Part shown: positions 18,336-36,152 of the stretch, one piece after another | How the letters are laid out: each line of letters begins with the position of its first letter | How positions within the stretch are numbered: position 1 is the first letter of the stretch | Origin: Ignavibacteriales bacterium | Lineage (GTDB): Bacteria > Bacteroidota > Ignavibacteria > UBA10030 | Length of the DNA stretch: 64,000 nt | NCBI GenBank assembly: GCA_016186715.1 | Contig: JACPLA010000100.1 | Coordinates: 157 to 64,156, forward strand | Direction: 5' to 3' | Notes under the pieces: generated by a model | The model's database searches: none | What the model saw: the letters and a program-made list of their open reading frames with translations, nothing else | What the model was told of the DNA's origin: nothing | Program-made: the position numbers and the translations under genes

Positions 18336-19229
18336 TCAAAAAGAAATGGTTGCGCGGGCGGTCGGTACAAACTCGACGAATCCGAACGGTCTCGCTCTCG
18401 GTTCAAGATGAACTTCGATTCGAAGGGAATTGTTGAACTGGGCTGCACTCCACGCTGCATCCAATGCGCTGAGAAGATGATTCGCCACAAGAACAAAGCC
18501 GGCCGTGCGGGCAACGTTGTAAAAATCGTTTGCCCTTCCCCTCATGTCGCGATATTCCCGGAACCGCATGGTAATCGACGTGAGATGATCCGGAGGTACG
18601 CCGATGAAATCCTCCCATCCAGGATTATACTGCTGATACTTCCCGATCAATTCATAATACTGCTGATCGGGACGCACGGGGAGCCGATGACTGAATCCGG
18701 TGCTTGCCCGTCTTCCGATGATCTCTTCGCATGCATTCAACGCCGCCCAATCCACTCGTTCCCACGGTTCCCCTGTACTTCTGATAATAATTGGCGGACA
18801 CGGAGGGGACCCGGGTTCTGCCAACTGGTCGTAATTATCTTCGATCCATTGTGCGTACTTGACCACAGACCAGTACTGATCGGCGTATTGCTCGAACTGG
18901 GCGGTCTGCCGATCTCCTTTGGAATCATACGTTGCATAGACGATCCAGAGAGCGACCTCAGCCCCAAAGAACGCCATGGACCGCCAGTAGCTCTCCGCGT
19001 AAAATTCGCCGGCCCCGGGAATAACTGCAGAATAGGCGGCCGCACGTAAGGGAGACTTCCGCTGGGGAGACGGTACGGCGGGCGGAATGGAGTCCTGGAA
19101 CTCAAGCCGCACATTGGTCAGCAAATCCAATCTGAGGTTACCGGTCAGCGGTTTGATTTCAACGTCGGATTGTGCCATCGCCGTCTGCCCGACGACAGTA
19201 ACCGCGACTACCAGGACAAAATTCTTCAT
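18336..19229 (-). CDS. Secreted hypothetical protein (last gene of the PorU-PorV operon)
   Basis: Signal peptide MKNFVLVVAVTVVGQTAMAQ. Motif YSAVIPGAGEFYAESYWRS. It starts 2 nt downstream of the preceding gene. Confidence 0.6.
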   Translation of the reverse strand: MKNFVLVVAVTVVGQTAMAQSDVEIKPLTGNLRLDLLTNVRLEFQDSIPPAVPSPQRKSPLRAAAYSAVIPGAGEFYAESYWRSMAFFGAEVALWIVYATYDSKGDRQTAQFEQYADQYWSVVKYAQWIEDNYDQLAEPGSPPCPPIIIRSTGEPWERVDWAALNACEEIIGRRASTGFSHRLPVRPDQQYYELIGKYQQYNPGWEDFIGVPPDHLTSITMRFREYRDMRGRANDFYNVARTAGFVLVANHLLSALDAAWSAAQFNNSLRIEVHLEPRARPFGFVEFVPTARATISF

Positions 19230-19231
19230 GA

Positions 19232-22200
19232 TTATCGAATCCTTCTCCGGGTCAGATCCCCGAGTTCAAAGCCAAACAGCACATTAAAATAGAACCGCCA
19301 CTCTTTTCCATACGAAACGTCCACTCCGCTGAATTGCCTCGTGAACCGGTCGAACCCGTACGCTCCTGAGAAAGTAAAGCGCGTGGGGTATGCATAGAAC
19401 GAGAACGACTCGAGGCGAAGCTCGAAACCGGCGTCTTTTTTCCAAGCGTTGATATCCGGGACAGTCCCCGTCCACGCATTCCCGAAGTCCGTGAAGACCG
19501 AGGCGTAGAGTTTGGTGAAATAGAATTGGAGCAGCCTGAAATCCACGCTCCTCGTCAGCGGAAAGCGATAGCCAAGATGGACGGTTGCCATAGAATTTCC
19601 CCCGAGGGCATAGTACGGATACCCCTTCATTCCGAGCATCCCGCCGGCATAAAAATCGAAAAAGGAGTCGACGGTTTTTCCTAATATTCCGCCTCCCCGG
19701 ACACCCAGTGCCAGCCTATGGTGGCGGAACGGCAGGCTCAGATATTCGTTCCAGGAAATCTCGGCCCTCTGGAAGCTGAAGTTGACGTACTGCGGAACCA
19801 GGACACCATCTTCAACCTCGAACTCTCCTTCCGCATTGAACTTATTGAATTCGTATCCATAACGGAGCATCACCGACCGTCCTCGTGGATTGATCTCATC
19901 ATCGACCCCCGGAAGAATTCCATTGAAGCCCAGGCGCGCCGTGAGCGCGTTTCCAATGAAATACACATTTCGAAACCCAGCAACGAGCGAGTTATCGTTC
20001 GGATTAACGAACGATCCGATGTCTGCGCTGTAGCGGCTCAAGACATAACGAAGCTCAAGCTGCATCTTTTCATTCAGCACAGGATGCCGTGCAACGGCAT
20101 CGAACTCAAAGAGGTTGTAGGTGATCTCAGGCGTGATGGTGACCGGCGACGGGTCAAGGGTGAAGCTGGAAAAGGTTTTTCGCGAAATGCTGTACAGCTC
20201 GAGGGAGAGGGCGGGTTCAAGTCCTTTTCTCCAAATCCAAGGCAGCCGATCCCGATATTCAAGAATTACAAATAAATCTCGTTCGAAGTTCCGATTCAGC
20301 GCCGCTCCAGCAAACAAGCTGAGTTTGTTCAGAACATCGGACGACACCGCATACAGGCCCGGTTTCACGATGTCGATTCCCTTATTCTTCGGATTGTAAT
20401 TATCGACGCGGATAAACGGAATCAAGGAAAGACTCGTAAAGACATTCCGATAGGGACGCTCTTCTGCCGTCACGGTTTCGTTCAAACGCTCATTCCCCAA
20501 CATAACCGGCGGAGAGATGTTCTTTCCGGTTGCTGCAATCAGGCGAGGAAGTTGTCTGTCGATCGGTTTTCGAGATGAAGCCGGAAGGAGCGCGATCTTG
20601 TATCCGTCCGAGGTGTAGGTTGCAAATACCAAATCGCCCGGCGCGTTGACGGTAGGGAGGAACGCTCCTCCCAAAACATTTGTGATCTGCTCCGAGTCGC
20701 CTGTCTCAAGATTATAGGACCAGATATTGAAAATCCCCGTACGGTCTGAAGAATAGTAAAGGACTTTCCCATCGGGAGCAAAGAAAGGATTGCGACAATC
20801 GCCTTCGGCCGCGATCAACCGCATGTCGCCCCCGCCCTCATCAATCAGCCCCAGAGACTGACGGTGTCCGTCTGAATACCCAAACGCAATCGACGATCCA
20901 TCCGAAGACCAGACCGGGGTATAAACCTGTTCTCCATTCACGAACCCTGTGATCTTCCTGAACCCAGTACCGTCCGCCTTTGTGATTCCGATATTCATCG
21001 TTCCATCAGAACCGAAGGCAAACACGAGCTTGGCGCCGTCAGAGGAGAGACGCGGATTTTGGGCCCGTAGTCCTTCCGTGAGCCTGGTTTCTTCTTCCTC
21101 AGCAATGTCATACCGGTACAGATCATAGAAGCGAGACCAGTGAGGATTGTTGTGGGTTGCCTTGGCGTAATACAGCGCTGTTCCATCGGGAGAAAAGGAA
21201 ATTGCCGACCGAACTCCCTCCACGATCCGTTCCGATTTCTTCTTCTTTACATCATAACGATAGACAGAACTCTGCCCGAAGTAATCTCTTCCTTTATTCG
21301 AGACATATGCGACGGCGGTTCCGCCGGGAACAAAGACAGGATGGAAATTGCCGAAGCCTTCGGTCTCGATGAGAATTCCTTCGTTCCGGGTTTCCCCCAC
21401 CCGCTCCTGAACGGCCCGATATTGACTGATCCTGGTTTCCTTCCATCGCCGATACACTTCCAGGGCCGGAATTCCCAAGACAGATTCAATCGCGCCGTCG
21501 ATCGTCACACGGTGAGCGGAACCCAGCTCGCGGGAGATTTCCCGGAGTCTCTCAGCGCCATACTCCTCCGCAATGAACTGCACAATGGAAAAGCCTGCAT
21601 TGTAGGCCGATTCATTTCCGAGACTGTTCTTTCCGAAGACCGCCATCTCCTCCCATGAAAGCGGATTCCCATCGATCATGTACATCCGGAGTATCATATC
21701 TCTATGGCTGTCCCAGTAATCGAAGCTCAGTTCCGGATGATTATACTGGGCCGTTCCTTCGGCAAACCAGCTTGGAACGATAAAGGCCGAAAGAGGGTAA
21801 GACACAAGGACGTTCGGAAATCCGTAGAGCACGTCGGGCCGCCGTTCAGCTTCATATCCGAACCACTGAAAATAGACTCCCGGAATCTTTCGCCCCAACT
21901 TCATTGCCGTTTGGATCTGAATGATGTGCGTCAATTCGTGGGTGATGACATTCCAAAGCCAAGGGTGAATTCCCCTCAGCTCGAAATCCATGGAGGAGGC
22001 CCAGACCTCGATTTTGTTATCGTAGAAATACGCCGCGCCGTTGGAGTAATCGTCGTGATCGCGAAGAATGATGCTGATTTTTTGGTCCGGTTCGTGATGA
22101 TACAGTGTGGTAATGGGACCGTAGACCGCTTCCGCAATCTCGGTACTTAACCTGCCGGTTCGTTCCGCTCCTGTGTGGAAATGGACCAGGAAATGCTCGG

Positions 22201-22324
22201 TTTCGAGCGTTTTCCATTCCAGTTCCGTGTGGGGAAATTCTGCTGTCTGACCGGCCAGAGAATGGGGAAGTGCAGCAAGGAGAGGGCCGACGAGAACCAA
22301 TCGTTTCACAAGCACGCTGATCAT
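19232..22324 (-). CDS. Large secreted multidomain protein: N-terminal HExxH zincin-like domain + TolB-like (PD40) beta-propeller + C-terminal Omp85/surface-antigen-like beta-barrel
   Basis: Signal peptide MISVLVKRLVLVGPLLAALPHSLAGQ. HELTH motif at 21926-21940. Repeated PD40-like blades (SFSPDGTALYY, PRLSSDGAKLVF, PVWSSDGSSIAF, PFFAPDGKVLYY). The C-terminal ~350 aa form a Gly/aromatic-rich beta-strand domain. Confidence 0.7.
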   Translation of the reverse strand: MISVLVKRLVLVGPLLAALPHSLAGQTAEFPHTELEWKTLETEHFLVHFHTGAERTGRLSTEIAEAVYGPITTLYHHEPDQKISIILRDHDDYSNGAAYFYDNKIEVWASSMDFELRGIHPWLWNVITHELTHIIQIQTAMKLGRKIPGVYFQWFGYEAERRPDVLYGFPNVLVSYPLSAFIVPSWFAEGTAQYNHPELSFDYWDSHRDMILRMYMIDGNPLSWEEMAVFGKNSLGNESAYNAGFSIVQFIAEEYGAERLREISRELGSAHRVTIDGAIESVLGIPALEVYRRWKETRISQYRAVQERVGETRNEGILIETEGFGNFHPVFVPGGTAVAYVSNKGRDYFGQSSVYRYDVKKKKSERIVEGVRSAISFSPDGTALYYAKATHNNPHWSRFYDLYRYDIAEEEETRLTEGLRAQNPRLSSDGAKLVFAFGSDGTMNIGITKADGTGFRKITGFVNGEQVYTPVWSSDGSSIAFGYSDGHRQSLGLIDEGGGDMRLIAAEGDCRNPFFAPDGKVLYYSSDRTGIFNIWSYNLETGDSEQITNVLGGAFLPTVNAPGDLVFATYTSDGYKIALLPASSRKPIDRQLPRLIAATGKNISPPVMLGNERLNETVTAEERPYRNVFTSLSLIPFIRVDNYNPKNKGIDIVKPGLYAVSSDVLNKLSLFAGAALNRNFERDLFVILEYRDRLPWIWRKGLEPALSLELYSISRKTFSSFTLDPSPVTITPEITYNLFEFDAVARHPVLNEKMQLELRYVLSRYSADIGSFVNPNDNSLVAGFRNVYFIGNALTARLGFNGILPGVDDEINPRGRSVMLRYGYEFNKFNAEGEFEVEDGVLVPQYVNFSFQRAEISWNEYLSLPFRHHRLALGVRGGGILGKTVDSFFDFYAGGMLGMKGYPYYALGGNSMATVHLGYRFPLTRSVDFRLLQFYFTKLYASVFTDFGNAWTGTVPDINAWKKDAGFELRLESFSFYAYPTRFTFSGAYGFDRFTRQFSGVDVSYGKEWRFYFNVLFGFELGDLTRRRIR

Positions 22325-22989
22325 AGAACCACGTTGACCCTTGTCAAGAAATTTTCCTCAACGTTCACGAGAATGCTTTTCACTGTGGTTCCCGCCTTCA
22401 GCTCAAGCTCAACCCGTCGGCCGGTGGCGTGGAGGCCCAAGAATTGATCCGTCAGGCTGTAGAGCGGTATCCCCGTCTGTGCCAAGGGAAGACTTTCCTG
22501 AGGAATGATGAATCGCCCGTTGACGTCCGACGTCGCTGAAACCGTCCCGTGAACAAGAACGACATACGACGCTCGTTCGGATCCTCCGGCGTGGTACTGA
22601 ACCGTGTACTTTCCGCCGGCAGCCTCGGAACCATCTGCCAGGCGTCCGTCCCAAAGAACCGTGATGACCGAGTCGGTGACGAGGCCCGAAAAAACGGTCC
22701 GGATGATGCGGTTGGAGGCATCGACAACCCGGACCTCGACAGACTCGCTGGAGGCCCGGAGAGCATAGGAACGCGACGGCTCCGGAGTGTTGCTTTCGAA
22801 AATGAATTCATAGAACAACCGGATTTGAACCTGTGCTAACGGTCTCCCGAGCCCATCTGAGACCGTTCCTTCAATTCGAAACCCGTTAATCGGTTCTGTG
22901 TCTGTTGAAAGGGGAATCTCTCTCTTGCAACTCCAGTGTACCAGGAGCAACGCCCAAACAGTCCCTCTGACAAGAGCCGATGTTCTCAT
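22321..22989 (-). CDS. Putative lipoprotein with CarbopepD_reg-like and FlgD-Ig-like beta-sandwich segments
   Basis: N-terminus MRTSALVRGTVWALLLVHWSC, a hydrophobic signal ending in Cys. GTVSDGLGRPLAQVQIRL resembles the carboxypeptidase regulatory-like fold. VLWDGRLADGSEAAGGKYTV resembles FlgD-Ig/CTD-like motifs. It is translationally coupled on both sides. Confidence 0.55.
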   Translation of the reverse strand: MRTSALVRGTVWALLLVHWSCKREIPLSTDTEPINGFRIEGTVSDGLGRPLAQVQIRLFYEFIFESNTPEPSRSYALRASSESVEVRVVDASNRIIRTVFSGLVTDSVITVLWDGRLADGSEAAGGKYTVQYHAGGSERASYVVLVHGTVSATSDVNGRFIIPQESLPLAQTGIPLYSLTDQFLGLHATGRRVELELKAGTTVKSILVNVEENFLTRVNVVL

Positions 22990-22994
22990 AGAGC

Positions 22995-25900
22995 TTACTT
23001 CACAACGGCGATCTTAATAACGACGGATTCCCGCTTCCCCGATCCCTGTGCCTCCAGCCGGGCCAGGTAGATTCCACTCTGAATGTCCTGCACATTCCAG
23101 GTCAGCTCTCCGTCGACGCCTCCGGCTGATTCTCCGCGCAGCTCGGTGATGGAGCCCCCTGCGACATCAAAGATCTTGACCGATATACTCGCGGGTTCCG
23201 TCGTATAGTAACGGATACGGGTCAGCGATCCGTACACAGGGTTTGGCCAGTTGTAGACGCGGTCTTTCGGCAGGAATTCCGTTGAGAGAGGAGACAAGAC
23301 AAGTCCAGAGCCGTCATAGAAGTTGGAATGGCCGGCGTCATTAAGAAATCCCGACCAATGCTTTCGCAGTGCTCCCCACGAGACGGCTGACTCCCACGCC
23401 TGAACGGCCCCGGATGGGCCTGCGACAATCAATCCCAGACTTCCCGATCCTGATTCATAGAGAACCAGCGATCCGTCCCCGGGCGACGCGGCCTGAAAGG
23501 GAAACGACGGAAGCACGCTCCCGTTTCGATCATACCCGAACACGGTTCCGGAACGTGTGAGACAGACCAGGTCCTGATAACCGTTGCCATCAACATCGAT
23601 GACAACCGGCGTTCCCACAAACACATTTCCTCCGGAGAACTGCTTTGGAAAGAAATCCAGCGTTGTCCCGTTTTCGTTGAAAGCATACAGACGTGATCGG
23701 GCAACGACCACAATATCGAGACGACCGTCGCCGTCGACGTCGGCCACAATAATTTCCGAAACCGTGTCGGAAACCGAGATCTCAAATCGTTGATCCCCGG
23801 TTGGATCGTAGGCGGCAACCCTGTGACCGCCCTCCTCCGCCACTGCGAAGATCGCTCCGGTCTGCGAGTTTCCCGCAGCAAGAAGCCACGGTCCTCCACC
23901 TCCCAGTTGGGTCTCATTTTGATTGCGGAACAGCGACCCGCCGCTTGTGAACGTGACGGAGCCATCGGCGCTTGTCCCGCGGGCCAGCCGTTTTACCGCG
24001 CCGCGTCCCGTCGGGAAGAAACTCTGCACCGTTCCATCCAAGCCGACCTTCCAGACGGTCCCCGATTCATCCCCGACAACGACGAGCGTTGTCCCTGCAG
24101 AATCGACCATCATCGGTGGCGCCGTGATCCGATTCGGAACAGCGACAGTGCGAAGACCGACGCTGTCATAGACTCCATCGCCTGTGTTGTCCCACAGCTC
24201 CCAGATCCGCAGCGTGCTGTCCTCCACACCGGCCACAACCGTGCGCGCCGACTCAAGTCCGGCCAGAGGAAACTGACTCGGGGACGCTGAGAGGAGACCC
24301 GCTGGATCCGTGACACCGGATGAACCGTTTTTCTGAAACACAAAAATCCCCTCGGCCGATGGTACGAAAACAGCGGAGTTCATGACAGTCGGATTGCCAA
24401 GCTGCGAGGGCGATCCAAGAGACATCGTCAGCGGCCCCGGCCGAAAATCTCCGGACCCCCGGTCCACCGTCATGACTGCGCGTACAGATTTTGCAGAGAA
24501 CTCTTTCATAGAGATGAAGCTTCGTGCTCCCGCGTTGCTGTTGCTCGACGGAATCGAGGTCTCGCTGAACTCGTTTCGATACACGGGTGCCGGGTTCCCG
24601 GCGAACCACGCATCGGGGGGCCAACCGTTCTCCGTCCCGCTCCCGGCCTCAAGAAACTCATATGGCACCCCGATGTCCTGCGAACCGTCGGCCTCTTCCA
24701 GATCAACGCCTCGTCGTTCCGGATCTGCGTTCACCGAGTTGGAAGCCAGGCCGGCCTCAATGATATCTTCATCGACATGCCAGATCAAAATTCCGCCCCC
24801 TTCGAACGATTGAAGAGACATATCGCCCGAAATCGCCCAATCGAAATCCTCGACGTCGATCAGGGACCCCGTGATCCCCCTGACATCGTTAAAGAAAAAG
24901 CCAGTCGTGTCGCGTTCGTAGTGCCGCGTGACGGTCACTCCGTTTTGAATAAGAGTCACCATCTGACCGTTCCCAAGCGGATCCCGGCTCCTGTTTTCAA
25001 CGAGGAAATACTCCCTGTGTGTTATCGGGATCTTGTAAATCGTGTCGTTGCCAGCTGTCGTCAGGCCGACGGCCGGAAGAATGAGCGATGAAGCCCCCGC
25101 GGCCGGGATGGTGGGGGTGGTCCAGCCGAGGTAAACTTTTTCCCATGCTGAGGGTTCAGGTGGAAACAATCCGCTGTAAGCGAAAATCGCCGCTCCGTCC
25201 ATCAGGCCGAATTGACCAATCCCTGATCGGCCCGTGCGAGTGTCGAAGAGATCCGGCAACCCAAGGAAACTCCCAAATGACGCGGCAAGCAGCCCGTTGA
25301 TGCTCAGCTGGAGAGTATCGCTTCTGCTTCCCGAGGTGAATACGCGTGTTTCGGTTTCAGGAAGAATCATAGAATTCGTTATAAAGAACGACCCGCCGTT
25401 CACAGGGATTCCGGGGAACGCAGGGTCGTTCAAAAGGTCTCTCATCGACGCGAGGTTCAGCGTGACGGAGGGAATGTCTAATGGTGTGGGATCAAATCCA
25501 AAGATGCCGACCAGATCGATGTCCCTGCCGACGCCCGCATGAAATATGATGAAGCCTTCGTATTGCGAAAACGGGAAGGCGGGGTTCAAGTCATTCGCCG
25601 CCGACCAGCTGTCAACAACGAGCCGCGCCAGAGGTTCGTTTGGTCCTTCTCTTGGGGGGGAGTATACAGCCATGTTTTCGGCAAGGGTCACGACAGGACC
25701 AAACAGGTCGGCGCTGATGAGAACCTTGCCGTTGGAGACTTTTCTGAAGTAATTCTCAAGAAAGCGCAGTTTACCGGTGAAATACGATGCATCGTGAGGA
25801 GGCGGATCGATTTGATCCGGGTTTCCCGGGGCGGCAAACGTACCGTCGCCGCTGGTGCGGGAATCCGAATCGCTTTTGAATTCGACCATAAGAGCGAGGA

Positions 25901-26045
25901 CACGAATCGTATCCTCAGCCTGGAGCCGGGGGGAAACAGCGGAGGGAGAAGAAAGCCGCACCCTCGAAAGCGGGCGTTCCTTCGGTTGGGAAAGACCGCC
26001 TGTAAACAAGACAGATAACGCGAAAGCAACAGAAAAAACCTTCAT
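22995..26045 (-). CDS. T9SS cargo: M6/InhA-like pseudo-metallopeptidase (HExxH replaced) + FG-GAP/VCBS beta-propeller repeats + T9SS C-terminal sorting domain
   Basis: Signal peptide MKVFSVAFALSVLFTGGLSQ (ATG at 26043-26045). M6 landmarks are present: GLLAASFGSFLGLPDLFDT aligns to the family's HEFGHxLGLPDxYD block, and SAWEKVYLGW, YFLVENR and ILIWHVDE also match. FG-GAP repeats VADVDGDGRLDIV and VIDVDGNGYQDLV. C-terminal domain ...SVKIFDVAGGSITELRGE...GIYLARLEAQGSGKRESVVIKIAVVK. Confidence 0.75.
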   Translation of the reverse strand: MKVFSVAFALSVLFTGGLSQPKERPLSRVRLSSPSAVSPRLQAEDTIRVLALMVEFKSDSDSRTSGDGTFAAPGNPDQIDPPPHDASYFTGKLRFLENYFRKVSNGKVLISADLFGPVVTLAENMAVYSPPREGPNEPLARLVVDSWSAANDLNPAFPFSQYEGFIIFHAGVGRDIDLVGIFGFDPTPLDIPSVTLNLASMRDLLNDPAFPGIPVNGGSFFITNSMILPETETRVFTSGSRSDTLQLSINGLLAASFGSFLGLPDLFDTRTGRSGIGQFGLMDGAAIFAYSGLFPPEPSAWEKVYLGWTTPTIPAAGASSLILPAVGLTTAGNDTIYKIPITHREYFLVENRSRDPLGNGQMVTLIQNGVTVTRHYERDTTGFFFNDVRGITGSLIDVEDFDWAISGDMSLQSFEGGGILIWHVDEDIIEAGLASNSVNADPERRGVDLEEADGSQDIGVPYEFLEAGSGTENGWPPDAWFAGNPAPVYRNEFSETSIPSSNSNAGARSFISMKEFSAKSVRAVMTVDRGSGDFRPGPLTMSLGSPSQLGNPTVMNSAVFVPSAEGIFVFQKNGSSGVTDPAGLLSASPSQFPLAGLESARTVVAGVEDSTLRIWELWDNTGDGVYDSVGLRTVAVPNRITAPPMMVDSAGTTLVVVGDESGTVWKVGLDGTVQSFFPTGRGAVKRLARGTSADGSVTFTSGGSLFRNQNETQLGGGGPWLLAAGNSQTGAIFAVAEEGGHRVAAYDPTGDQRFEISVSDTVSEIIVADVDGDGRLDIVVVARSRLYAFNENGTTLDFFPKQFSGGNVFVGTPVVIDVDGNGYQDLVCLTRSGTVFGYDRNGSVLPSFPFQAASPGDGSLVLYESGSGSLGLIVAGPSGAVQAWESAVSWGALRKHWSGFLNDAGHSNFYDGSGLVLSPLSTEFLPKDRVYNWPNPVYGSLTRIRYYTTEPASISVKIFDVAGGSITELRGESAGGVDGELTWNVQDIQSGIYLARLEAQGSGKRESVVIKIAVVK

Positions 26046-26154
26046 GACCCTCCGCCGGACTGCAACAGGATGGGAAGAACGGACCGACACCCTAGTGTCT
26101 CGACCTGCAGGACGCGGCACGATTTCTCTTACAAGGTATTTCTTAGACTCGACA

Positions 26155-27267
26155 CTAGAACGGGGATCCTTCCCACCGTATCATCAGAGTGAAGCGGAGT
26201 GTTTCTCCTAAGGGATGCTTGTCTTCAAACGCATCAATGTAGCTGAAGTCGAATCCGTACACATCATATCGGAGTCCGGCCCCGTACGTCATGAACTTGC
26301 GATTTCCGTATTGCGGATCTTCATAAAAATACCCGACGCGGAGGGCAATCAGCCTGGGTGACCCATACCAATATTCAAATCCCATGCTGGTCACAATGTC
26401 GCGCAATTCCTCACTCAACGGTTTGTCGATCCATGAATAGTACAGCGCTCTGTAAAATGGGTCTGTCTTTCCCTGGCTGTTGCGACGAACGAGCAGTTTG
26501 CTGAAATCAAGGATGTACGTCAGGTTGTTGAACTCCGACTGGATGGCATCAACTGCAAACCCGAGTCGAAAGTTCATCGGAAGGGGATCTGCCTGAGCTT
26601 CATCGATGTACGTCAGGTTCGGACCGATGTTCGAAACGTTGACACCGATGCTCAACCGATTGCCGAAATCGATATCTGTAAAAGGGATCATGACGATCCT
26701 CGGTCTGTACATCAGGCCGAGGTCGAAGCTAAGCCCGGAGGCGACGCCTTTGCCCTTCTCCTCCGCCGTTCCAAACGGAGCCAGCCTGCTGTGAATGAAC
26801 CGCACATTGACACCGAGAGCCAGTTCGTCGAAAACCATGGTAGCGTAGCCCGCAGTCAGGGCAAACTCATATCCTTTGAACCTACCGATCTCCTCAGGTC
26901 CGGTCGGGGCCGTTCGAATGAATTCGCCAAGATTGAGATATGTGAGGCCCGCCGAGATTGTCCCGTCCAGGTCAGGAACATTCTGCTTGTACACGGTATG
27001 AGCGATCCAGAGGTCTGAGAGTCCGAACCCGGGGAGCCAATTGGCATGAGACAATGCGACCTCGGAACCGGTCTGATACGCGTAACCGGCCGGGTTCCAA
27101 AACTGCGCCCACACGTCATCGGCAAGACCGGCACCCGCTTCTCCCATTCCGCTTGCCCTCGAATTCGGGGCGATGAGGAGAAACGGAACCGCCGAGGTGG
27201 ACACCTGAGCCGATATCTCGAATGTCATGACGATGAGAAGAATCGGCAGAATGATTTTCTTCAGCAT
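26155..27267 (-). CDS. porV: Type IX secretion system outer-membrane shuttle protein PorV (LptO)
   Basis: Signal peptide, then the PorV-family N-terminal signature PFLLIAPNSRASGMGEAGAGLADDVWAQFWNPAGYA. About 370 aa beta-barrel. It sits immediately downstream of porU. Start chosen at the ATG 9 nt after GGAGG; an alternative ATG is at 27276. Confidence 0.75.
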   Translation of the reverse strand: MLKKIILPILLIVMTFEISAQVSTSAVPFLLIAPNSRASGMGEAGAGLADDVWAQFWNPAGYAYQTGSEVALSHANWLPGFGLSDLWIAHTVYKQNVPDLDGTISAGLTYLNLGEFIRTAPTGPEEIGRFKGYEFALTAGYATMVFDELALGVNVRFIHSRLAPFGTAEEKGKGVASGLSFDLGLMYRPRIVMIPFTDIDFGNRLSIGVNVSNIGPNLTYIDEAQADPLPMNFRLGFAVDAIQSEFNNLTYILDFSKLLVRRNSQGKTDPFYRALYYSWIDKPLSEELRDIVTSMGFEYWYGSPRLIALRVGYFYEDPQYGNRKFMTYGAGLRYDVYGFDFSYIDAFEDKHPLGETLRFTLMIRWEGSPF

Positions 27268-27348
27268 AGACTGCATCCTCCGTGGAAACAAGGTCCCCGC
27301 GAGGGGACGGTTTTGATGATACCAGAATTATTTTCCATTTTCAATACT

Positions 27349-30300
27349 CTAGCGCAGGACCGTCAGTTTTCCGATAACTTCTTCAGAAGTACGACGATCG
27401 GAAGACCGGGTGACAACTTTGTAAAAGTACACACCGTTGGCGATCGGGTCTCCGTTCTGATCGCGCCCGTCCCAGGGAATCCGGACAAACCGGTCGACAA
27501 CGGAAAGCCCTTCTTGAATTTTGACCAGTCTGCCCGCAAGGGTATAGATCTTGACTTCGACGTCGATAGGATCCGACGAATTTCGTTGAAAGGTGAACAC
27601 CGTCGACCGCACAACAGGATTGGGGAAATTAAAGACATTGTAGATTTTCAAATCCGATACCGCGCGGACATCAAAGGCGATTTCCTCCTGAGCCGAATTG
27701 TTGTAAATATCCCATGCCTTGACCTTTAACGAGTGTCCTCCTTCCGAAAGATCCCGAAGTTGATAACGGACTTCTCCGCTCTGATACGTGTCGAGGTCTC
27801 CACGATAGAATGGGGTCAGATCAATGGACTGAGGTATTCCGCTGAGGGTGGCCTCAAGCCGGTGTCCGACACTTGCCGTCGATGTATTGATCCCGCTTTG
27901 GTCGAACAGTTTCACGAGAAGCAACGCATCCGGGGACACGACATCGCCTGACCGGAACGACTCATCATCGAGAAACACCTGCAGGAGAGGCCCCACGCTA
28001 TCGACGGCTGCCGCGGAATCTGTACCGGCGATCACGATGTTCTCCGTATAACCCACGGCATCGGATGAGGAGGACCGGGCATAGACGGAAATGCGGGCCC
28101 GGTTGTTGTCATACGAAACGTCCTTGGGAATGGGAACTGTGGCGCGGAACTTCCCCTGGTTGACGCTGATCTCACCGCGATACAACAGGCTGCCATTGAC
28201 TTCAAAGGAAAAATTCCCCCATTCCGGGACGAACACCCTGCGTTTGGAATCGAACATTTCCAGGAGCGCTCGTCCGGTGAAATCGCCCGACGGAGATCCG
28301 TCCGGTCGGAGAACAAGCCCGTTGATTTCGATACGACTGAGCGCGCTCACCTGGACGAGAGTCGATAACGGAGCGCCGTCGATGCTGTCCACACCTGCAA
28401 ACGTCGCCGGGAGATTTAGTCTCATGGTAGGATCAGCAAAGAGATGGTACTTAATGTCGTTGACACCGGAAAGTATTTGTTTCGTCCGGTACATGGCATC
28501 AACGAGTCTCCGCGGTCTTCCATCCGGATCACGGGGAAACAATTGCGCATAGAGCGTGTTGTTGAACTGTGAATTCTGAAACGAATAAACAGCACGGGAT
28601 GCCGTGACGACACCGATGGCGCCCCCCTGAGCCATGGTCAGTAACAGTTCCCCTGCACTTTCTTCAGCCGGATCGTCATAGCGGGCGAAGTCACAGGTGG
28701 CCGCAACAAGAAAAAAGGGTTGGGTGTAATTTCTGAGCAGGGGCAAGCTGGCCTCACGAGTGAAAATTGCCTCGTGGGCCCAGAGCTGCGGGTTCCCGTG
28801 TCCGGTATAGTTAAGAATAAGCGTCCCATCGTTGATGGCTTCCACGATCGCAGTGTTGGCTGTCGGTTTTCGCCGACCTGCCGCGCTGTTGACCGTCGGA
28901 TACTCCACGATAAAGATCTTCTTCTTTTCCACAATTGCGGGCGTAAAACTCTGCGCCAGGACCTCGGCCTGAAGCGTGTGAATGCTCCCGTCATCCCTTG
29001 TCGAGGTCAGGCCGTCATCCGCGACGTATGTGACGCGATTGCGCCACGGCTCCAAGGGTGCGGTTGTTTCATACGCAATGATCTTATCCACCGCAGCCCG
29101 TGCCTGCCCGAGTGAATTGATCGGAAGGCGACCGATCGCAACCGAAACCTTTGTGTCGCCGGGATTCAGTATGCCCAGATGATCGTCACTGGCATAAGAA
29201 AGGATCTGAAACACCGATTCCAGCGTTTCGTAGGGAGGGATCCAGTTCCGGTTGGAGGCCCGGATGTTTTTGTAATCGTAGTGGCCGTCGCCGAACAGCA
29301 GGACATAGCGGACCGGAACGCTCCAGTTCCCTCGTGTGGAAAGAAGAAAATCCCTGACCGCCAGCGGGTCGGTGTTTCCCCCCGAATACTCATTGACAAT
29401 ATTCTCAATGTCCACAACCAGGCACGTCAAGGAATCTCCCTGTTCGCGATGGGCCGCAAGACGATCCGCTTCGGACCGAAATTCTCTGGGCGTAATGATG
29501 ACGAACTCAGCCCCCGTTGTGAGACCCTGGAGGTTTGTATTCTCCACTTTCCGGACGTTCGTCGGCACAAGGAAGCCGTTCGGACCTATGGCAAGAAACT
29601 GGCGGACGCCTCCCGCGGTCTGCGGCGACTGAAACGCGCACATTCCCGGGTCGATCGGATCGACGGTCAAATTCGTGATTCTCACAACACTGTCATGGAC
29701 GCTCACATCGAAGACATTCACGTCTCGGCTGGAAAAACCGGAGACGCGATATTCCATGACGCCCGTCGTATCGGGCGACGAGAACGCGATGAAATCATTC
29801 AGAGCCTCAAAACGTCTCCGATACAGGATTTCAAACCAATCAAGCCATCCGTTTGCTCCCGACGAATTTGCCGAAAAACTGAACCGAAGAATGCTACGAT
29901 CGTCGGGCAACGTGACCTGGCGCGAGATCGTGGTCAACGGAGCCCGATATGCCGCGTTGCCTTCGATGTCTCTTACATCGATCCCCAACGTGATGATGGG
30001 ATTCCCAAGGGGTTCTCCATTCTCCTCAATCTGGAAAGACTCGTTTGTCAATGAACGCCCCAGAAACAGAAACCGGTAGGTGGTCGGTTTCGCGGAGACG
30101 AAGCCCGGAAGGAGAGTTGTGTACACCGCCGTCCTGCTTTCGGAGTCAAAGAGCGGGCCGAGCCACTGCCTTCCCGAGTGGATGAGATTGTTCCGTTCTT
30201 CCTCCACAAAGACCTTTTCCTGAAAATCTTCGACGAACGGACCGGAGGCATTCCCGGATGCAACGGAATCCATCGACTTCCCCGGATCACCGCCAAACGT

Positions 30301-31266
30301 GAAAAAATAGGCGTTCACATCTGTATAGTGATTGATAGAATGGTTGAATGTCTTTGTCGCAGGATTGTACCGCCACCCGCGCGTCGAGGCGCCGTAGAAG
30401 AGGAGATAATCCTCCGCGTCAAACAGACCGTTTCCGTTCCTGTCGACGATCATGCGGGCAACCTCCTGGAGGCCGCCGGATGGGCGGGGCTCCGAAACTC
30501 CCTCCGGCAGCGGTCTCCCGCCGTTTCCGTAGACGCGGATGGAACCAATGTCGGACACGGCGCTCACGGCAATGCCCGCATTGATGAAGAACGATTGATC
30601 CAATTTGTAAATCCCTGTTTCTCCGATATCCATCTTGTACCATTCGCCCTGCTTCAACGGCGAATCGGGCACTTGTCTCGACGCGACCTGACGGGAAGAT
30701 CCGGCCACTGATTTGACACGGACCACCATCGCGTCGTAGCGTCTCAGGATCTGCCGTGCTTCATCGTACTGAAGGGGATAAAGCTTCAGGAGGATGGTTG
30801 ATGTCCCGCTCAATGTGGTGATCTTTTCCACTTCTGTGAGCCTTGATGGGGCGAACCCTGCGGCTCCAGAAGGTCGGCCGGAAAACACCGGTACAGCTCC
30901 GAATTCCCTTTCGTCTTCTCTTCGGAATGCAGGATACGGCGCAGGGAGATGGCCCGGAAGCTCGGTGTACCGAACATCCACGATTTCCGCTTCCCAGTTC
31001 TCGCCTTGAAGTTCCAACGGAAGCACGCGGAAGGGAATCATCGGTTGTCCGGGATCTTCCCGAGACAAGATTCCGCCGGTAAATCCAACAAAGGTGTAGT
31101 GTCCTCCCCCGGCGCCGCGGATCGCTTGCGTGAAGAACTGCGGGTGGAATTCCAACACGATTGCAGAGGCGCTGCGTTCGCGAACGACCACATCGCCCTG
31201 ATCCTGACCGACGAGGATGACAGTGGAGAGGAAAAAAACAAGAAGTATGGAGATCGAACGCTGCAT
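27349..31266 (-). CDS. porU: Type IX secretion system sortase PorU (C25 gingipain-family cysteine peptidase)
   Basis: Signal peptide MQRSISILLVFFLSTVILVGQ. C25 catalytic His/Cys blocks (NYTGHGNPQLWAHE, FFLVAATCDFARYD). Retained T9SS C-terminal domain (...KIYTLAGRLVKIQEG...GVYFYKVVTRSSDRRTSEEVIGKLTVLR). The adjacent downstream porV is the conserved porU-porV arrangement. Confidence 0.8.
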   Translation of the reverse strand: MQRSISILLVFFLSTVILVGQDQGDVVVRERSASAIVLEFHPQFFTQAIRGAGGGHYTFVGFTGGILSREDPGQPMIPFRVLPLELQGENWEAEIVDVRYTELPGHLPAPYPAFRREDEREFGAVPVFSGRPSGAAGFAPSRLTEVEKITTLSGTSTILLKLYPLQYDEARQILRRYDAMVVRVKSVAGSSRQVASRQVPDSPLKQGEWYKMDIGETGIYKLDQSFFINAGIAVSAVSDIGSIRVYGNGGRPLPEGVSEPRPSGGLQEVARMIVDRNGNGLFDAEDYLLFYGASTRGWRYNPATKTFNHSINHYTDVNAYFFTFGGDPGKSMDSVASGNASGPFVEDFQEKVFVEEERNNLIHSGRQWLGPLFDSESRTAVYTTLLPGFVSAKPTTYRFLFLGRSLTNESFQIEENGEPLGNPIITLGIDVRDIEGNAAYRAPLTTISRQVTLPDDRSILRFSFSANSSGANGWLDWFEILYRRRFEALNDFIAFSSPDTTGVMEYRVSGFSSRDVNVFDVSVHDSVVRITNLTVDPIDPGMCAFQSPQTAGGVRQFLAIGPNGFLVPTNVRKVENTNLQGLTTGAEFVIITPREFRSEADRLAAHREQGDSLTCLVVDIENIVNEYSGGNTDPLAVRDFLLSTRGNWSVPVRYVLLFGDGHYDYKNIRASNRNWIPPYETLESVFQILSYASDDHLGILNPGDTKVSVAIGRLPINSLGQARAAVDKIIAYETTAPLEPWRNRVTYVADDGLTSTRDDGSIHTLQAEVLAQSFTPAIVEKKKIFIVEYPTVNSAAGRRKPTANTAIVEAINDGTLILNYTGHGNPQLWAHEAIFTREASLPLLRNYTQPFFLVAATCDFARYDDPAEESAGELLLTMAQGGAIGVVTASRAVYSFQNSQFNNTLYAQLFPRDPDGRPRRLVDAMYRTKQILSGVNDIKYHLFADPTMRLNLPATFAGVDSIDGAPLSTLVQVSALSRIEINGLVLRPDGSPSGDFTGRALLEMFDSKRRVFVPEWGNFSFEVNGSLLYRGEISVNQGKFRATVPIPKDVSYDNNRARISVYARSSSSDAVGYTENIVIAGTDSAAAVDSVGPLLQVFLDDESFRSGDVVSPDALLLVKLFDQSGINTSTASVGHRLEATLSGIPQSIDLTPFYRGDLDTYQSGEVRYQLRDLSEGGHSLKVKAWDIYNNSAQEEIAFDVRAVSDLKIYNVFNFPNPVVRSTVFTFQRNSSDPIDVEVKIYTLAGRLVKIQEGLSVVDRFVRIPWDGRDQNGDPIANGVYFYKVVTRSSDRRTSEEVIGKLTVLR

Positions 31267-31608
31267 AGAAAAATGAAAAAGCCGAACGACGGTCCATGTT
31301 CCTTCATTCGGCCACTTGGCTTCCACCGAATTCGATAAAGGCTTGCTCCGTCACTGCCACACCTGAACAAACCGCTTCGTTTGATCAGGAACCAACCTTT
31401 AACAAAGACTCGATAGAAGAATTTCCTGTATGCGTTTTACGATCTCGACTCTAAAGATAGCAGAAGGGTGTTTGAGAGTCAAGAAATCGCGTGTGCCATG
31501 TTACACGCACAGACTGAATGCGTTTTTCATTGCGCGCGGGTTTTTTGGTTGCAGTTAGCGCAAAAAATTATTAAATTTCCGTTGTTTTAGACACTTTTTC
31601 GAGGTAGA

Positions 31609-33094: not shown

Positions 33095-33682
33095 ATGCAT
33101 GAAGAGGTTGGCATTTTTTTCGACAGAGACGGAACGATCAATGTGGAGCTTGATTATATCTCGGACCCCGACAAACTGGAGCTTGTTCCGGGCGCGGCCA
33201 AGGCCATTCGGGAAGCCAACGAATTTGGAGTCAAGGTTTTTGTCATCACGAATCAATCCGGCGTAGCCCGGGGTTTGTACACGGAACACGATGTCGAGGC
33301 AGTTCATACGCGGCTCCGCAAGACACTCGCAGACCACGGCGCGCATCTTGACGCCATCTACTACTGTCCGCACCATCCCGAGTACGGGACTCCAGCGTAT
33401 AGAAAAGTTTGCACCTGTCGCAAACCGAAGACGGGAATGCTCCAGGAGGCCCGCAAATCCTTTCGGATTGACCTGAGCAAATCGTATGTCGTGGGGGACA
33501 AGTGTACGGATATCGAGGCCGGCCGCACGGCACACTGTGGCACTGTTCTTGTGCTTACCGGATATGGGGCAGCGGAGGCCGAAGATTGCGGAAAGGCAGG
33601 GGGTGCAGATCATGTGGCAAAGGACATCTATGCGGCGTGGCATTACATCAGGAAAAACATTGATCGGACACAACAGCGCTAG
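33095..33682 (+). CDS. gmhB: D-glycero-beta-D-manno-heptose-1,7-bisphosphate 7-phosphatase (HAD-IIIA)
   Basis: Motif I FFDRDGTIN, then VITNQSGVARG, CYCPHHP...C.CRKPK (zinc site) and VGDK. This is the typical GmhB layout. Confidence 0.8.
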   Translation: MHEEVGIFFDRDGTINVELDYISDPDKLELVPGAAKAIREANEFGVKVFVITNQSGVARGLYTEHDVEAVHTRLRKTLADHGAHLDAIYYCPHHPEYGTPAYRKVCTCRKPKTGMLQEARKSFRIDLSKSYVVGDKCTDIEAGRTAHCGTVLVLTGYGAAEAEDCGKAGGADHVAKDIYAAWHYIRKNIDRTQQR

Positions 33683-34886
33683 GCTCTTTCGTCGTATTCA
33701 AAGCGACGCGATTTTTCCCCGAGTGATCGCCTCCTTCCTGCTTGTGCTTGCAGGATGCGTGGACGAACCCAGCCCCGTCGGCGCCGGGTTGTTCCCTTCG
33801 TCGGATCTTGTCAAACTGGACAGTATCATAGTTATTTCCCACGAGAGTTTCAGCAGGAAAGCTGTCCCCCGGTCGTTCTTCGTCGGAAGCCCGACGACAT
33901 TCGCCGTTGGACGAAGCGGAACGCTGGAGTCGTGGGGGCTGGTCCAATTTCCTGCCTTTGATAATTCACTCAACCAGGCCTCGGCCCTGAGGGCCGAACT
34001 CCGCCTCCGCACTGCCTACCACCTTGGAGATTCGCTGGGTCTCTCCCTCATCGTCCGGAAACCGACGATGAGTTGGAACAGGACCACATTTACGTACGAT
34101 TCTCTGAAGCTCCCTGGGTTTTACGTCCCCACAAATTCACCGGAATTCGACAAAGATGGAGACGAAATCCACATCGAACTGGACACCGCCCTCGTCAACG
34201 AATGGTTTCGGACCGGAACGGCCTCGACGCCGTTCGGGATCCTTTTGGAGCCCACAAACTTCACAGCACTGAAGGGATTTCATAATAGTCTTGCGGATAG
34301 CAGCGATGACAGACCGGAATTGACCGTTGTCTATACACCGAGTGCATCCCAGACAGCCGACACAATTCGATCAACGGGGTTTGTTGAAAAATTTGTCCTC
34401 GGCGCAACCGACACGTCATTTCTCAGCAGTACCACGCTGATGTATGCCCGCGCAGGAGCCGCCTTCCGCGGAGTCGCGGGATTTGATATCCGCGGTGTGC
34501 CTGACCGCGCATCCATTCACCGTGCAATCCTCGAAGTCACACTGGATCCCTCATCATCCGAGTTTACCTCGCAGGTGCTTGATTCTCTCGTTGCACATTA
34601 CATCTTGAGCGACGGATCATTCCAAGAGTTTTCTTTTTCGGCTGCCGGGTGGGTCCTCAACCCGGTCCAGCCCAGCACCGCCTTGACTGAATCCGGGCGG
34701 AGAATTTACCGCTTCACGGTGACCGAATTTGTTCAGGCCTGGGTCAGGGGATACGGAGAACGCCGTATCGGAGTAGCAGCAATGGGCGAAACAACGTCGA
34801 TTGACGGCTTCGCCGTGTTTGGAGCAGCCGCGGCCGATTCTTCTCTTCGACCAAAACTCAGCATCCTTTATTCCCCCACACACTGA
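33630..34886 (+). CDS. Hypothetical lipoprotein with two internal repeat modules (each ending RP(E/K)L(T/S)(V/I)(V/L)Y(T/S)P)
   Basis: Lipobox-like FLLVLAGC. There is no canonical start after the gmhB stop. The nearest in-frame ATG is at 33630 and overlaps gmhB by 53 nt; a TTG at 33660 is an alternative. Repeated motifs are DDRPELTVVYTP and SLRPKLSILYSP. Confidence 0.5.
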   Translation: MRRGITSGKTLIGHNSARLFRRIQSDAIFPRVIASFLLVLAGCVDEPSPVGAGLFPSSDLVKLDSIIVISHESFSRKAVPRSFFVGSPTTFAVGRSGTLESWGLVQFPAFDNSLNQASALRAELRLRTAYHLGDSLGLSLIVRKPTMSWNRTTFTYDSLKLPGFYVPTNSPEFDKDGDEIHIELDTALVNEWFRTGTASTPFGILLEPTNFTALKGFHNSLADSSDDRPELTVVYTPSASQTADTIRSTGFVEKFVLGATDTSFLSSTTLMYARAGAAFRGVAGFDIRGVPDRASIHRAILEVTLDPSSSEFTSQVLDSLVAHYILSDGSFQEFSFSAAGWVLNPVQPSTALTESGRRIYRFTVTEFVQAWVRGYGERRIGVAAMGETTSIDGFAVFGAAAADSSLRPKLSILYSPTH

Positions 34887-36124
34887 TGAAACGATCGCTC
34901 GCATTCGCTCTTGTCTTTTTTCTCACCGGCATCACCGTCGTGCACGCCGGGGGGCCGACGTTTACGCGTTTCGGCCTGGGCGATATTATTTTCTTCGGGG
35001 ATCCGCGGGCATCAGCCATAGGAATAACGGGCATTGCACTAACGGGCGATGGATTCATCAACACGATGAACCCCGCAGGCCTTGCCGGCATCACCCGCAC
35101 AAGAATCTTCGGGGGATTCGAGTACCTCAGCAGTACCATTTCCGATCAAGCGGGTTCTGAACGTTTCGTGCGGGGAGGATTCCAGGGAATCGCGCTTGCG
35201 GTACCGGCCTCCCCGGACGACGGTCTTGTCTTGTTTGCCCAGGCCAGCCCATTCAGCCGGGTGGATTACAACGCGGAAGTGCGAGAGCCCCTTCCCCCAA
35301 GCCCCTTCACTCAGGGACTGAAAGGAGTGGGAGGGCTTTCAAGTCTTTCCCTCGGCGCTTCGTACCGGCCGCTGACCCGCCTGGACATCGGTCTGAAATT
35401 CACGTACTACTATGGCACCATTCAACAGTTGGCCTCGGTGGATTTCGACGATTCCGCATTCGAAGACAGCGAAATCCAGAAATCATTGTTCCACTCAGGA
35501 ATGAACTTCGCGCTTGGTCTTACTTACCGCGGGCTGGCGGATCTTCCCGGGAGTTCGTTCTTCCAACCCTTGACGGTTGGCTTGATCCTCTCGGCCCCAG
35601 CCAAACTCTCCGTGAAAGAAGAACGGATCCTGCTCACCTCCACCTCCTCCGATACAGCGTCGGTTGCCCGGGGCACAACGGATCTTCCGCTCGGCCTTGG
35701 AGTGGGAGCATCCTACCTCGTCGCAGACCGGACGCTCATTTCCGGCGAAGTCTTCCACCAACAGTGGGGATCGGCAAACTTTTTTGGAATTCCACCTGTT
35801 GGAATAAGAAACAGCGGCCGATACGGAATCGGAGTGGAATTCCTCCCCCCCAGGAATCCCGAAACTTATTGGGCTGCGGTGGCATATCGGGCCGGATTTA
35901 CGTACCATTCTTCTTACTATTCGATCAACGGACAACCTGTCAATGAGTGGTACGGCTCTGCGGGCGTCGGATTGCCCATTGGACCCGATGCCAGGCTTCA
36001 CTTGACTGCGCAGATCGGTTCGCGGAGAGCCGCCTCCGGCGCGCTGCCTAAAGAAACCTTCGTAAGGATCTCAGCGTCGTTCAGCGCAAGCGAAGCCTGG
36101 TTCCTTACGATCGAAGAAGACTGA
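34886..36124 (+). CDS. PorV/PorQ-family (FadL-like) outer-membrane beta-barrel protein
   Basis: Signal peptide MKRSLAFALVFFLTGITVVHA. N-terminal motif GDPRASAIGITGIALTGDGFINTMNPAGLAG, compare the PorV block ARa.GMG.A..A..DD....WNPAG. Its ATG overlaps the upstream lipoprotein stop (TGATGA). Confidence 0.55.
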   Translation: MKRSLAFALVFFLTGITVVHAGGPTFTRFGLGDIIFFGDPRASAIGITGIALTGDGFINTMNPAGLAGITRTRIFGGFEYLSSTISDQAGSERFVRGGFQGIALAVPASPDDGLVLFAQASPFSRVDYNAEVREPLPPSPFTQGLKGVGGLSSLSLGASYRPLTRLDIGLKFTYYYGTIQQLASVDFDDSAFEDSEIQKSLFHSGMNFALGLTYRGLADLPGSSFFQPLTVGLILSAPAKLSVKEERILLTSTSSDTASVARGTTDLPLGLGVGASYLVADRTLISGEVFHQQWGSANFFGIPPVGIRNSGRYGIGVEFLPPRNPETYWAAVAYRAGFTYHSSYYSINGQPVNEWYGSAGVGLPIGPDARLHLTAQIGSRRAASGALPKETFVRISASFSASEAWFLTIEED

Positions 36125-36152
36125 ACATCAACTTTCGGAGGTCTCACTCGTC

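Follow-up and report, generated by a model that had tools for sequence, protein, structure and literature searches.

Omp85-type outer-membrane proteins have been divided into ten Omp85/TpsB subfamilies, one of which, the 'WD40-like' subfamily, was defined by PF07676 repeats placed before a PF01103 barrel (Heinz and Lithgow 2014; PMC4104836). For about 95 WD40-like members, Table S3 of that study lists a BamA or TamA barrel, TolB and a 'best aminopeptidase hit' (the aminopeptidase matches being 1z5h, 4kxd, 4ar1, 3qnf and 4fgm), with Phyre2 confidence to BamA or TamA of 99.5-100% for nearly all of them; the main text discusses only the propeller, which it likens to a BamA-BamB fusion, and treats neither gene context nor function. 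In this report, we describe such a gene, located at 19232..22324 on the - strand of a 64,000-nucleotide stretch of Ignavibacteriales bacterium DNA (hereafter the window; assembly GCA_016186715.1, contig JACPLA010000100.1, positions 157 to 64,156), which encodes a predicted zinc peptidase, a PD40 beta-propeller and an Omp85-type barrel in a single polypeptide (hereafter the fusion protein). [quoted passage not shown] Some accession prefixes among the WD40-like members are ones that we take to be those of Ignavibacterium album and Melioribacter roseus.

The fusion protein shares with the WD40-like subfamily the same three modules in the same order, with an aminopeptidase-like domain first, PD40 repeats before the barrel and no POTRA domain; the comparison differs in that the peptidase match appears only in the supplement of the 2014 study and the porV-M6i-DUF5683 neighbourhood is unmentioned there. 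The 'Metallo' Omp85 subfamily of the same survey is a different one, carrying PF00149, a metallophosphoesterase domain (PMC4104836). A full-text literature search found no later work on the WD40-like subfamily.

A second point of comparison comes from the machinery for beta-barrel assembly (BAM) of Bacteroidota, in which BamG, a 14-strand barrel of the FadL family that itself holds BamH, a surface lipoprotein, binds tightly to the rear of the Omp85 barrel BamA (PMC12611786); the report of a second BamA-BamG-BamH structure notes the resemblance of BamG-BamH to PorV (PMC12578637).

Module organization of the fusion protein

The gene is an uninterrupted open reading frame, and its product is 100% identical to the NCBI entry 'PD40 domain-containing protein [Ignavibacteriales bacterium]'. 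Searched exhaustively, the representatives at 50% identity gave 765 homologous clusters (E<=1e-30), and at 90% identity there are more than 3266 clusters, a number well above what chance could give; this is a real and widespread gene. Its features in the window are the following.

19232..22324, - strand: whole gene, gluzincin plus PD40 propeller plus Omp85 barrel; open reading frame and translation, ATG start, 1030 residues
22250..22324, - strand: Sec signal peptide, residues 1-25, seen as a hydrophobic N-terminus; predicted cleavage after ...SLAG, before Q
21380..22237, - strand: predicted gluzincin metallopeptidase domain, residues ~30-315; Peptidase_MA_2 match, AlphaFold model and Foldseek
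21926..21940, - strand: HELTH zinc-binding/catalytic motif, residues 129-133
21779..21925, - strand: highly conserved insertion of ~50 residues, residues 134-182, separating the two zinc-binding helices (those of HExxH and of WFAEG/Glu)
21755..21769, - strand: WFAEG motif, residues 186-190
20579..21376, - strand: six-bladed PD40 (TolB-like) beta-propeller, residues ~317-582
20435..20578, - strand: linker, residues 583-630, low confidence and variable length
19259..20434, - strand: Omp85-type beta-barrel, residues ~631-1022, ~16 predicted strands; profile, NCBIfam, Pfam in relatives, AlphaFold
19619..19645, - strand: loop 6 lid-lock motif GGMLGMKGY, residues 894-902, aligned to BamA FYGGGLGSVRGY; conserved in the family
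19481..19495, - strand: strand 13 motif FTDFG (FxDxG type), residues 944-948, aligned to BamA LFADAGSVW; conserved in the family

By its HExxH motif and downstream glutamate, the N-terminal domain is classed as a gluzincin zinc peptidase, for which peptidase activity is predicted. In an alignment of 30 sequences with 27-43% identity to the fusion protein (A2), H129, E130, H133, W186, E189, G190 and Q193 are all invariant; H129, E130 and H133 are likewise invariant in an alignment of close relatives (A1), and the HExxH motif together with E189 is unchanged over relatives at 27-66% identity, the motif variants in the family all being of the forms HExxH and W[FLW][AS]EG. E189 is the probable third zinc ligand, a role suggested by the gluzincin fold. 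Pfam Peptidase_MA_2 matches residues 183-296 of the fusion protein, beginning at the WFAEG region, with an E-value of 1.7e-5 and 25.2 bits (under the gathering score of 32.4), and it matches 28 of 30 diverse relatives, the best at E 1.2e-12; Peptidase_M9 is touched by 2 of the 30. An AlphaFold model of residues 28-318 reached a predicted local distance difference test (pLDDT) score of 72.8, and Foldseek with this model returned gluzincin peptidases only, namely M61, M1 (IRAP, tricorn factor F3 and ERAP), M30 and M9 collagenase, at TM-scores of about 0.5 and 9-16% identity. A sequence profile of the domain found no solved relative in the PDB, and the gluzincin link to known structures comes solely from the fold search.

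With the M1, M61 and M9 gluzincins, the domain has in common the catalytic fold and a signature made up of HExxH plus Glu, in spite of the low identity; it differs from them in lacking the GxMEN exopeptidase motif of M1 aminopeptidases (neither G.MEN nor MEN occurs in the fusion protein) and in carrying the insertion of ~50 residues, so that the spacing from HExxH to Glu is 55 residues. The insertion appears as a beta-hairpin, at low confidence, in the domain model, and it may form a flap peculiar to this family that covers the active site.

In the AlphaFold model, the propeller region (residues 317-580) is made of 22 strands with pLDDT 80-90, which fits six blades; the Pfam PD40 match has an E-value of 4.8e-17 and the NCBIfam TolB propeller model matches residues 326-541 at E 5.7e-32. 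The linker that follows has pLDDT <50 at residues 591-617 and ranges from 38 to 90 residues across relatives; no POTRA domain was matched in the fusion protein by Pfam or NCBIfam.

The C-terminal ~400 residues have, in sequence and model, the features of an Omp85-type barrel, predicted to have ~16 strands. A profile of residues 618-1022 built from 14 diverse relatives matches Neisseria BamA (4k3b) at E 5e-5, as well as a POTRA-domain protein and TamA, and in the BamA alignment the family pattern GGxxG[LM][RK]GY lies over the BamA loop-6 GGLGSVRGY and F-x-D-x-G-x-x-W over the strand-13 FADAGSVW. Where BamA has VRGY, an instance of the loop 6 motif (V/L/M)RG(F/Y/W), the fusion protein has MKGY (residues 899-902) and the family [LMI][RK]GY; for the strand 13 FxDxG motif, A1 shows no variation at F944, D946 or G948. 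With the Pfam model of Omp85 (PF01103), the fusion protein itself gives no match and five of the 30 relatives do (best E 2.6e-11), and NCBIfam gives weak TamA, BamA and TamL matches on residues 850-971. In the full-length AlphaFold model (pLDDT 66.5), ~16 barrel strands are drawn at pLDDT 35-75, and loop 6 comes after strand 11 and before strand 12. The loop-6 RGY-type and strand-13 FxDxG motifs are thus common to BamA, TamA and this barrel, whereas the fusion protein has an enzyme and a propeller in place of POTRA domains and scores far under the equivalog cut-offs. Among the identities rejected are BamA and TamA (11.3 bits versus 297 and 17.5 bits versus 625, respectively, and no POTRA), PorE (which fails on model cut-off and on architecture) and T9SS cargo (the C-terminus being a barrel with no Por_Secre_tail match in Pfam or NCBIfam).

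A preliminary description of the window, made from the sequence alone, had already read the gene as a fusion of an HExxH domain, a propeller and a barrel. The reading frame is real and each motif that it quoted lies where it was placed, including HELTH, the blade motifs SFSPDGTALYY (residues 376-386), LSSDGAKLVF (426-435), WSSDGSSIAF (472-481) and FAPDGKVLYY (515-524), and the Gly/aromatic-rich stretch WRFYFNVLFGFELGD (1009-1023). Each of the three modules is independently supported by Pfam, profile or AlphaFold evidence; the BamA profile match and the Omp85 motifs speak for a barrel at the C-terminus, and the HExxH motif proved to be invariant and to sit within a peptidase fold, not in a non-peptidase family with a variable motif. 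Its description of the protein as unusual was overstated, the architecture having been catalogued in 2014 (PMC4104836) and occurring in hundreds of 50%-identity clusters.

Conservation of the T9SS gene neighbourhood

In the window, six genes lie close together on the - strand (porU, porV, M6i, a small lipoprotein gene, the fusion gene as the fifth and the DUF5683 gene), with gaps or overlaps of at most 57 nucleotides. Its five neighbours in the cluster are as follows.

27349..31326, - strand: PorU (sortase of type IX secretion), at the head of the cluster; Peptidase_C25 E 8e-84, NCBIfam T9SS_sortase 959 bits versus a cut-off of 420
26155..27291, - strand: PorV, FadL-family outer-membrane shuttle of the T9SS; Pfam PorV E 1.3e-33, T9SS_OM_PorV 259.9 bits versus 250
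22995..26120, - strand: M6i, T9SS-dependent M6-like inactivated metalloprotease; FG-GAP repeats, type A sorting domain; NF052323 810.9 bits versus 600
22321..22989, - strand: probable small lipoprotein with a FlgD_ig domain (Pfam), 222 residues; candidate lipobox ...HWSC
18336..19229, - strand: DUF5683 protein, 297 residues, signal peptide; Pfam DUF5683 E 5.5e-8, starting 2 nucleotides past the stop of the fusion gene

The order porU-porV-M6i-fusion-DUF5683 recurred over 80 genomes in a scan of one genome per species, in which the best 80 of 592 relatives (44-64% identity to the fusion protein) were kept; these loci comprise Ignavibacteriota-like genomes and the Kryptonia cell 'Ca. Chrysopegis kryptomonas', and the counts use only loci with enough flank. 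M6i lies directly upstream of the fusion gene in 67/67 testable genomes, PorV is upstream in 65/65 and PorU in 60/60, and DUF5683 follows directly downstream in 65/68. As the M6i protein matches its inactivated family and its sequence contains no HExxH, a predicted-active gluzincin is always paired with a dead M6-like protease. Beyond the 80 closest loci, the breadth of the pattern rests on 11 single look-ups of distant relatives, of which eight, some at ~30% identity, keep the T9SS linkage.

P0112: full cluster
P0227: PorV, M6i-like, fusion gene
P0176 (a cluster that includes Fidelibacter multiformis, Fidelibacterota): PorV, M6i-like, fusion gene, DUF5683, then a BamD-like YfiO gene
P0196 (a marine relative): PorV, M6i-like, fusion gene, DUF5683, then YfiO
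P0203: M6i-like, fusion gene, DUF5683
P0241: PorV-like, FG-GAP protein, fusion gene
P0141: M6i-like, fusion gene, two DUF5683-like genes
P0163 (rearranged): fusion gene, DUF5683, one unrelated gene, PorV, M6i

One large clade within the family is firmly tied to porV, M6i and DUF5683 in three or more lineages of the Fibrobacterota-Chlorobiota-Bacteroidota (FCB) group; other clades lack this tie. The coupling to a T9SS operon that had been claimed from the window is therefore real and reaches well beyond it, and conserved co-location with core T9SS genes, the mark expected of a T9SS accessory protein, is present both among the testable close genomes and in most of the distant look-ups. In several of the distant linked loci, the M6i-like gene overlaps or abuts the start of the fusion gene, which suggests translational coupling. 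Literature searches on the module, on DUF5683 and on M6-like T9SS proteins found no paper on this gene neighbourhood, and none on DUF5683 in bacteria.

Several further observations concern the partners. DUF5683 is the most widely conserved of them, Fidelibacterota-type loci included; it is also found downstream of the fusion gene at the distant loci L084, L086, L090, L091 and L092, and the protein in the window shows hydrophobic helix-like stretches and a C-terminal Phe. Directly after the DUF5683-like gene, a YfiO (BamD-like) lipoprotein gene is present in two loci of Fidelibacterota/Marinimicrobia type (L084, 13812..14564; L090, 11863..12657). The PorV-like genes of some distant linked loci are much longer (L082, 4537..6612; L089, 1720..4101; L090, 3406..5256), encoding 616-793 residues compared with 378 in the window, sometimes with a faint Reg_prop match, and their length suggests a PorV fused to an extra domain. 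The FlgD_ig gene, which overlaps the start of the fusion gene by 4 nucleotides, is confined to the closest relatives (~14/80 loci by tblastn); elsewhere M6i abuts the fusion gene directly.

Downstream, uvrA follows the six-gene cluster after a gap of ~340 nucleotides, and scanning the DNA downstream of DUF5683 for promoters and terminators gave no result. On the other side, the window carries a BamG-like gene (34886..36124; 223 bits against NF053685, a little short of its 250-bit cut-off) in the region 33486..37436 (+ strand), flanked by a DNRLRE-domain gene and a TPR gene, with a serine hydroxymethyltransferase (SHMT) gene slightly beyond. The same BamG-like, TPR, SHMT order stands just upstream of the PorV, M6i and fusion gene cluster in the Fidelibacter-type locus L084 (1..3269), so the BamG-like and fusion gene clusters are neighbours in two phyla.

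Proposed role at the outer membrane

We tentatively favour, with confidence a little short of even, a reading in which the fusion protein is a periplasm-facing, outer-membrane-tethered predicted peptidase and its complex trims or clears T9SS cargo or shuttle intermediates. The Sec signal peptide would deliver the protein to the periplasm; Q26, invariant among the close relatives in A1, is likely to be the first mature residue, which fits the 'Q-rule' that Gln comes first in mature signal peptidase I substrates of Bacteroidota. Because strand 1 starts in the periplasm in every Omp85 protein of known structure, the peptidase and propeller are most likely periplasmic, and they would hang under the outer membrane on the flexible linker. 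Propellers restrict access to the active site in prolyl oligopeptidases (family S9) and in tricorn protease, and by analogy the propeller here probably limits access to unfolded chains or peptides. The barrel would probably dock in the membrane against PorV, again by analogy, while PorV would hold M6i on the cell surface through its sorting domain. Working with PorV, M6i and DUF5683, presumably in a physical complex, the fusion protein would act from the periplasmic side at a late, outer-membrane stage of type IX secretion.

The analogy behind the docking step is the BamA-BamG-BamH assembly, whose Omp85 barrel, FadL-family barrel and surface protein are the same kinds of parts as the fusion protein, PorV and M6i, and the BamD-like gene that follows the fusion gene cluster in L084 and L090 also parallels the parts of BAM. 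The parallel is one of parts only, the present triad being known from its genes; moreover, PorV is a shuttle and not a permanent subunit, and in M6i a sorting domain takes the place of a lipid anchor. Extending it, we speculate that PorV, M6i, the fusion protein and DUF5683 form an unrecognised T9SS outer-membrane complex in Ignavibacteriota, Kryptonia, Fidelibacterota and related FCB lineages, built like BamA-BamG-BamH and carrying a periplasmic, propeller-gated zinc peptidase that would process or clear cargo at the shuttle step; as a whole, this proposal is possible and lies on the doubtful side.

A number of observations weigh against a role in type IX secretion or against parts of the structural reading. 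Three of the 11 distant relatives (P0233, in a Latescibacterota cluster, P0228 and P0216) have no T9SS neighbour, and the link does not extend to the characterised porU-porV locus of Cytophaga hutchinsonii, whose downstream genes are small. The interpretation in the preliminary description is, as a whole, supported in part: the role in cargo handling at the outer membrane that it suggested is a conjecture whose one basis is the T9SS synteny, and about a quarter of the distant relatives sampled do not lie next to T9SS genes. To our knowledge, Proteobacteria and Myxococcota have no type IX secretion. The subfamily list of 2014 spans both groups, and the core function of the family therefore cannot depend on T9SS. 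The fusion architecture, known since 2014, is still uncharacterised, with no experimental study of any family member. As for the barrel, the model has low confidence (pLDDT <50 at residues 886-909 and 961-1011), structure searches with the full-length model returned propellers only and no barrels, and the position of the BamA lid-lock arginine is occupied by K900, lysine being common in the family and arginine present in 15/26 close relatives.

Alternative explanations and significance

It is unlikely, in our view, that the fusion protein is a general envelope peptidase that degrades periplasmic peptides or misfolded envelope proteins, with the synteny reflecting shared regulation or inheritance. 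Such a function would suit a large family that also occurs away from T9SS genes and a subfamily that is found in phyla without T9SS (PMC4104836, Table S3). It accords poorly with the neighbourhood, however, since the gene order is kept in all 60-67 testable of the 80 genomes, the linkage survives at ~30% identity in another phylum, partly rearranged, and M6i and the fusion gene overlap or abut in several lineages; synteny this deep usually means a functional or physical link. The listed accessions in question presumably do belong to T9SS-less phyla.

A self-exported surface peptidase of the PlpD-like kind (type Vd), whose barrel would pass its own peptidase and propeller outward, strikes us as distinctly improbable, and so does the task it would then perform, such as maturing or shedding T9SS cargo or digesting external protein. 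PlpD has an N-terminal enzyme fused to an Omp85-type barrel, as here, and exposes that enzyme, an option that has also been raised for other Omp85 proteins without POTRA domains (PMC4104836); the disordered linker of 38-90 residues is long enough to cross a barrel lumen, and two of the operon partners, PorU and M6i, sit on the cell surface. In PlpD, however, the passenger is a lipase, its exposure has been demonstrated and a POTRA domain stands between passenger and barrel, whereas the fusion protein has no POTRA there and its passenger would consist of folded domains totalling ~560 residues. Its family conserves the lid-lock motifs that are characteristic of closed BamA and TamA barrels, and no sign of passenger release was seen in the data.

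We give a similarly low weight to a dedicated assembly factor, which would insert T9SS parts such as PorV or PorV-bound surface proteins in the manner of BamA or TamA; it is equally hard to credit that the peptidase and propeller replace the POTRA domains as a substrate-binding or quality-control arm, as BepA serves BAM. The conserved Omp85 motifs agree with this, as do the BamD-like gene after the cluster in Fidelibacterota-type loci and the BamG-like gene, which is no more than 13 kb away in the window and no more than 10 kb away in L084. BepA, a zinc peptidase that works at BAM, offers a precedent: it is a periplasmic HExxH peptidase (M48) joined to a protein-binding repeat domain at an Omp85 machine. 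Unlike the fusion protein, it is separate and soluble, belongs to another peptidase family and has TPR repeats where the fusion protein has its propeller. Against an assembly factor stand the missing POTRA domain, the BamA and TamA scores given above and the invariant catalytic motif, which argues that proteolysis is the main activity; any lateral-gate function is conjectural.

That the fusion protein is a TolB orthologue or 'biopolymer transporter Tol', as database source names and the similarity of its propeller to that of TolB would have it, is virtually untenable, since the TolB model TIGR02800 scores 111.2 bits against a cut-off of 343.15 and matches the propeller only (profile positions 193-399), the peptidase domain and membrane barrel are missing from TolB, the TolB N-terminal domain is missing from the fusion protein and no Tol-Pal genes are adjacent. 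Records for the fusion protein and for related proteins carry the public names 'PD40 domain-containing protein', 'biopolymer transporter Tol' and 'Tol biopolymer transport system component'. The two Tol names reflect only the PD40 repeats, and because the TolB cut-off is missed and the match is confined to the propeller, the public names are misleading.

Since its listing in 2014, the WD40-like Omp85 subfamily has had no assigned function, and mislabelling of its members as Tol transport proteins is widespread. The invariant catalytic motif and the locked gene cluster turn it into a concrete, testable hypothesis, in which our preferred reading is a tethered periplasmic peptidase at a late, outer-membrane stage of type IX secretion. 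If the link with the T9SS genes is physical, the T9SS of lineages other than the much-studied Bacteroidia would gain a proteolytic, Omp85-based part in its late stage, and the pairing of Omp85 with FadL-type barrels, a recent finding, would extend past BAM. Should the four-protein complex prove true, it would provide the first function for the WD40-like Omp85 subfamily.

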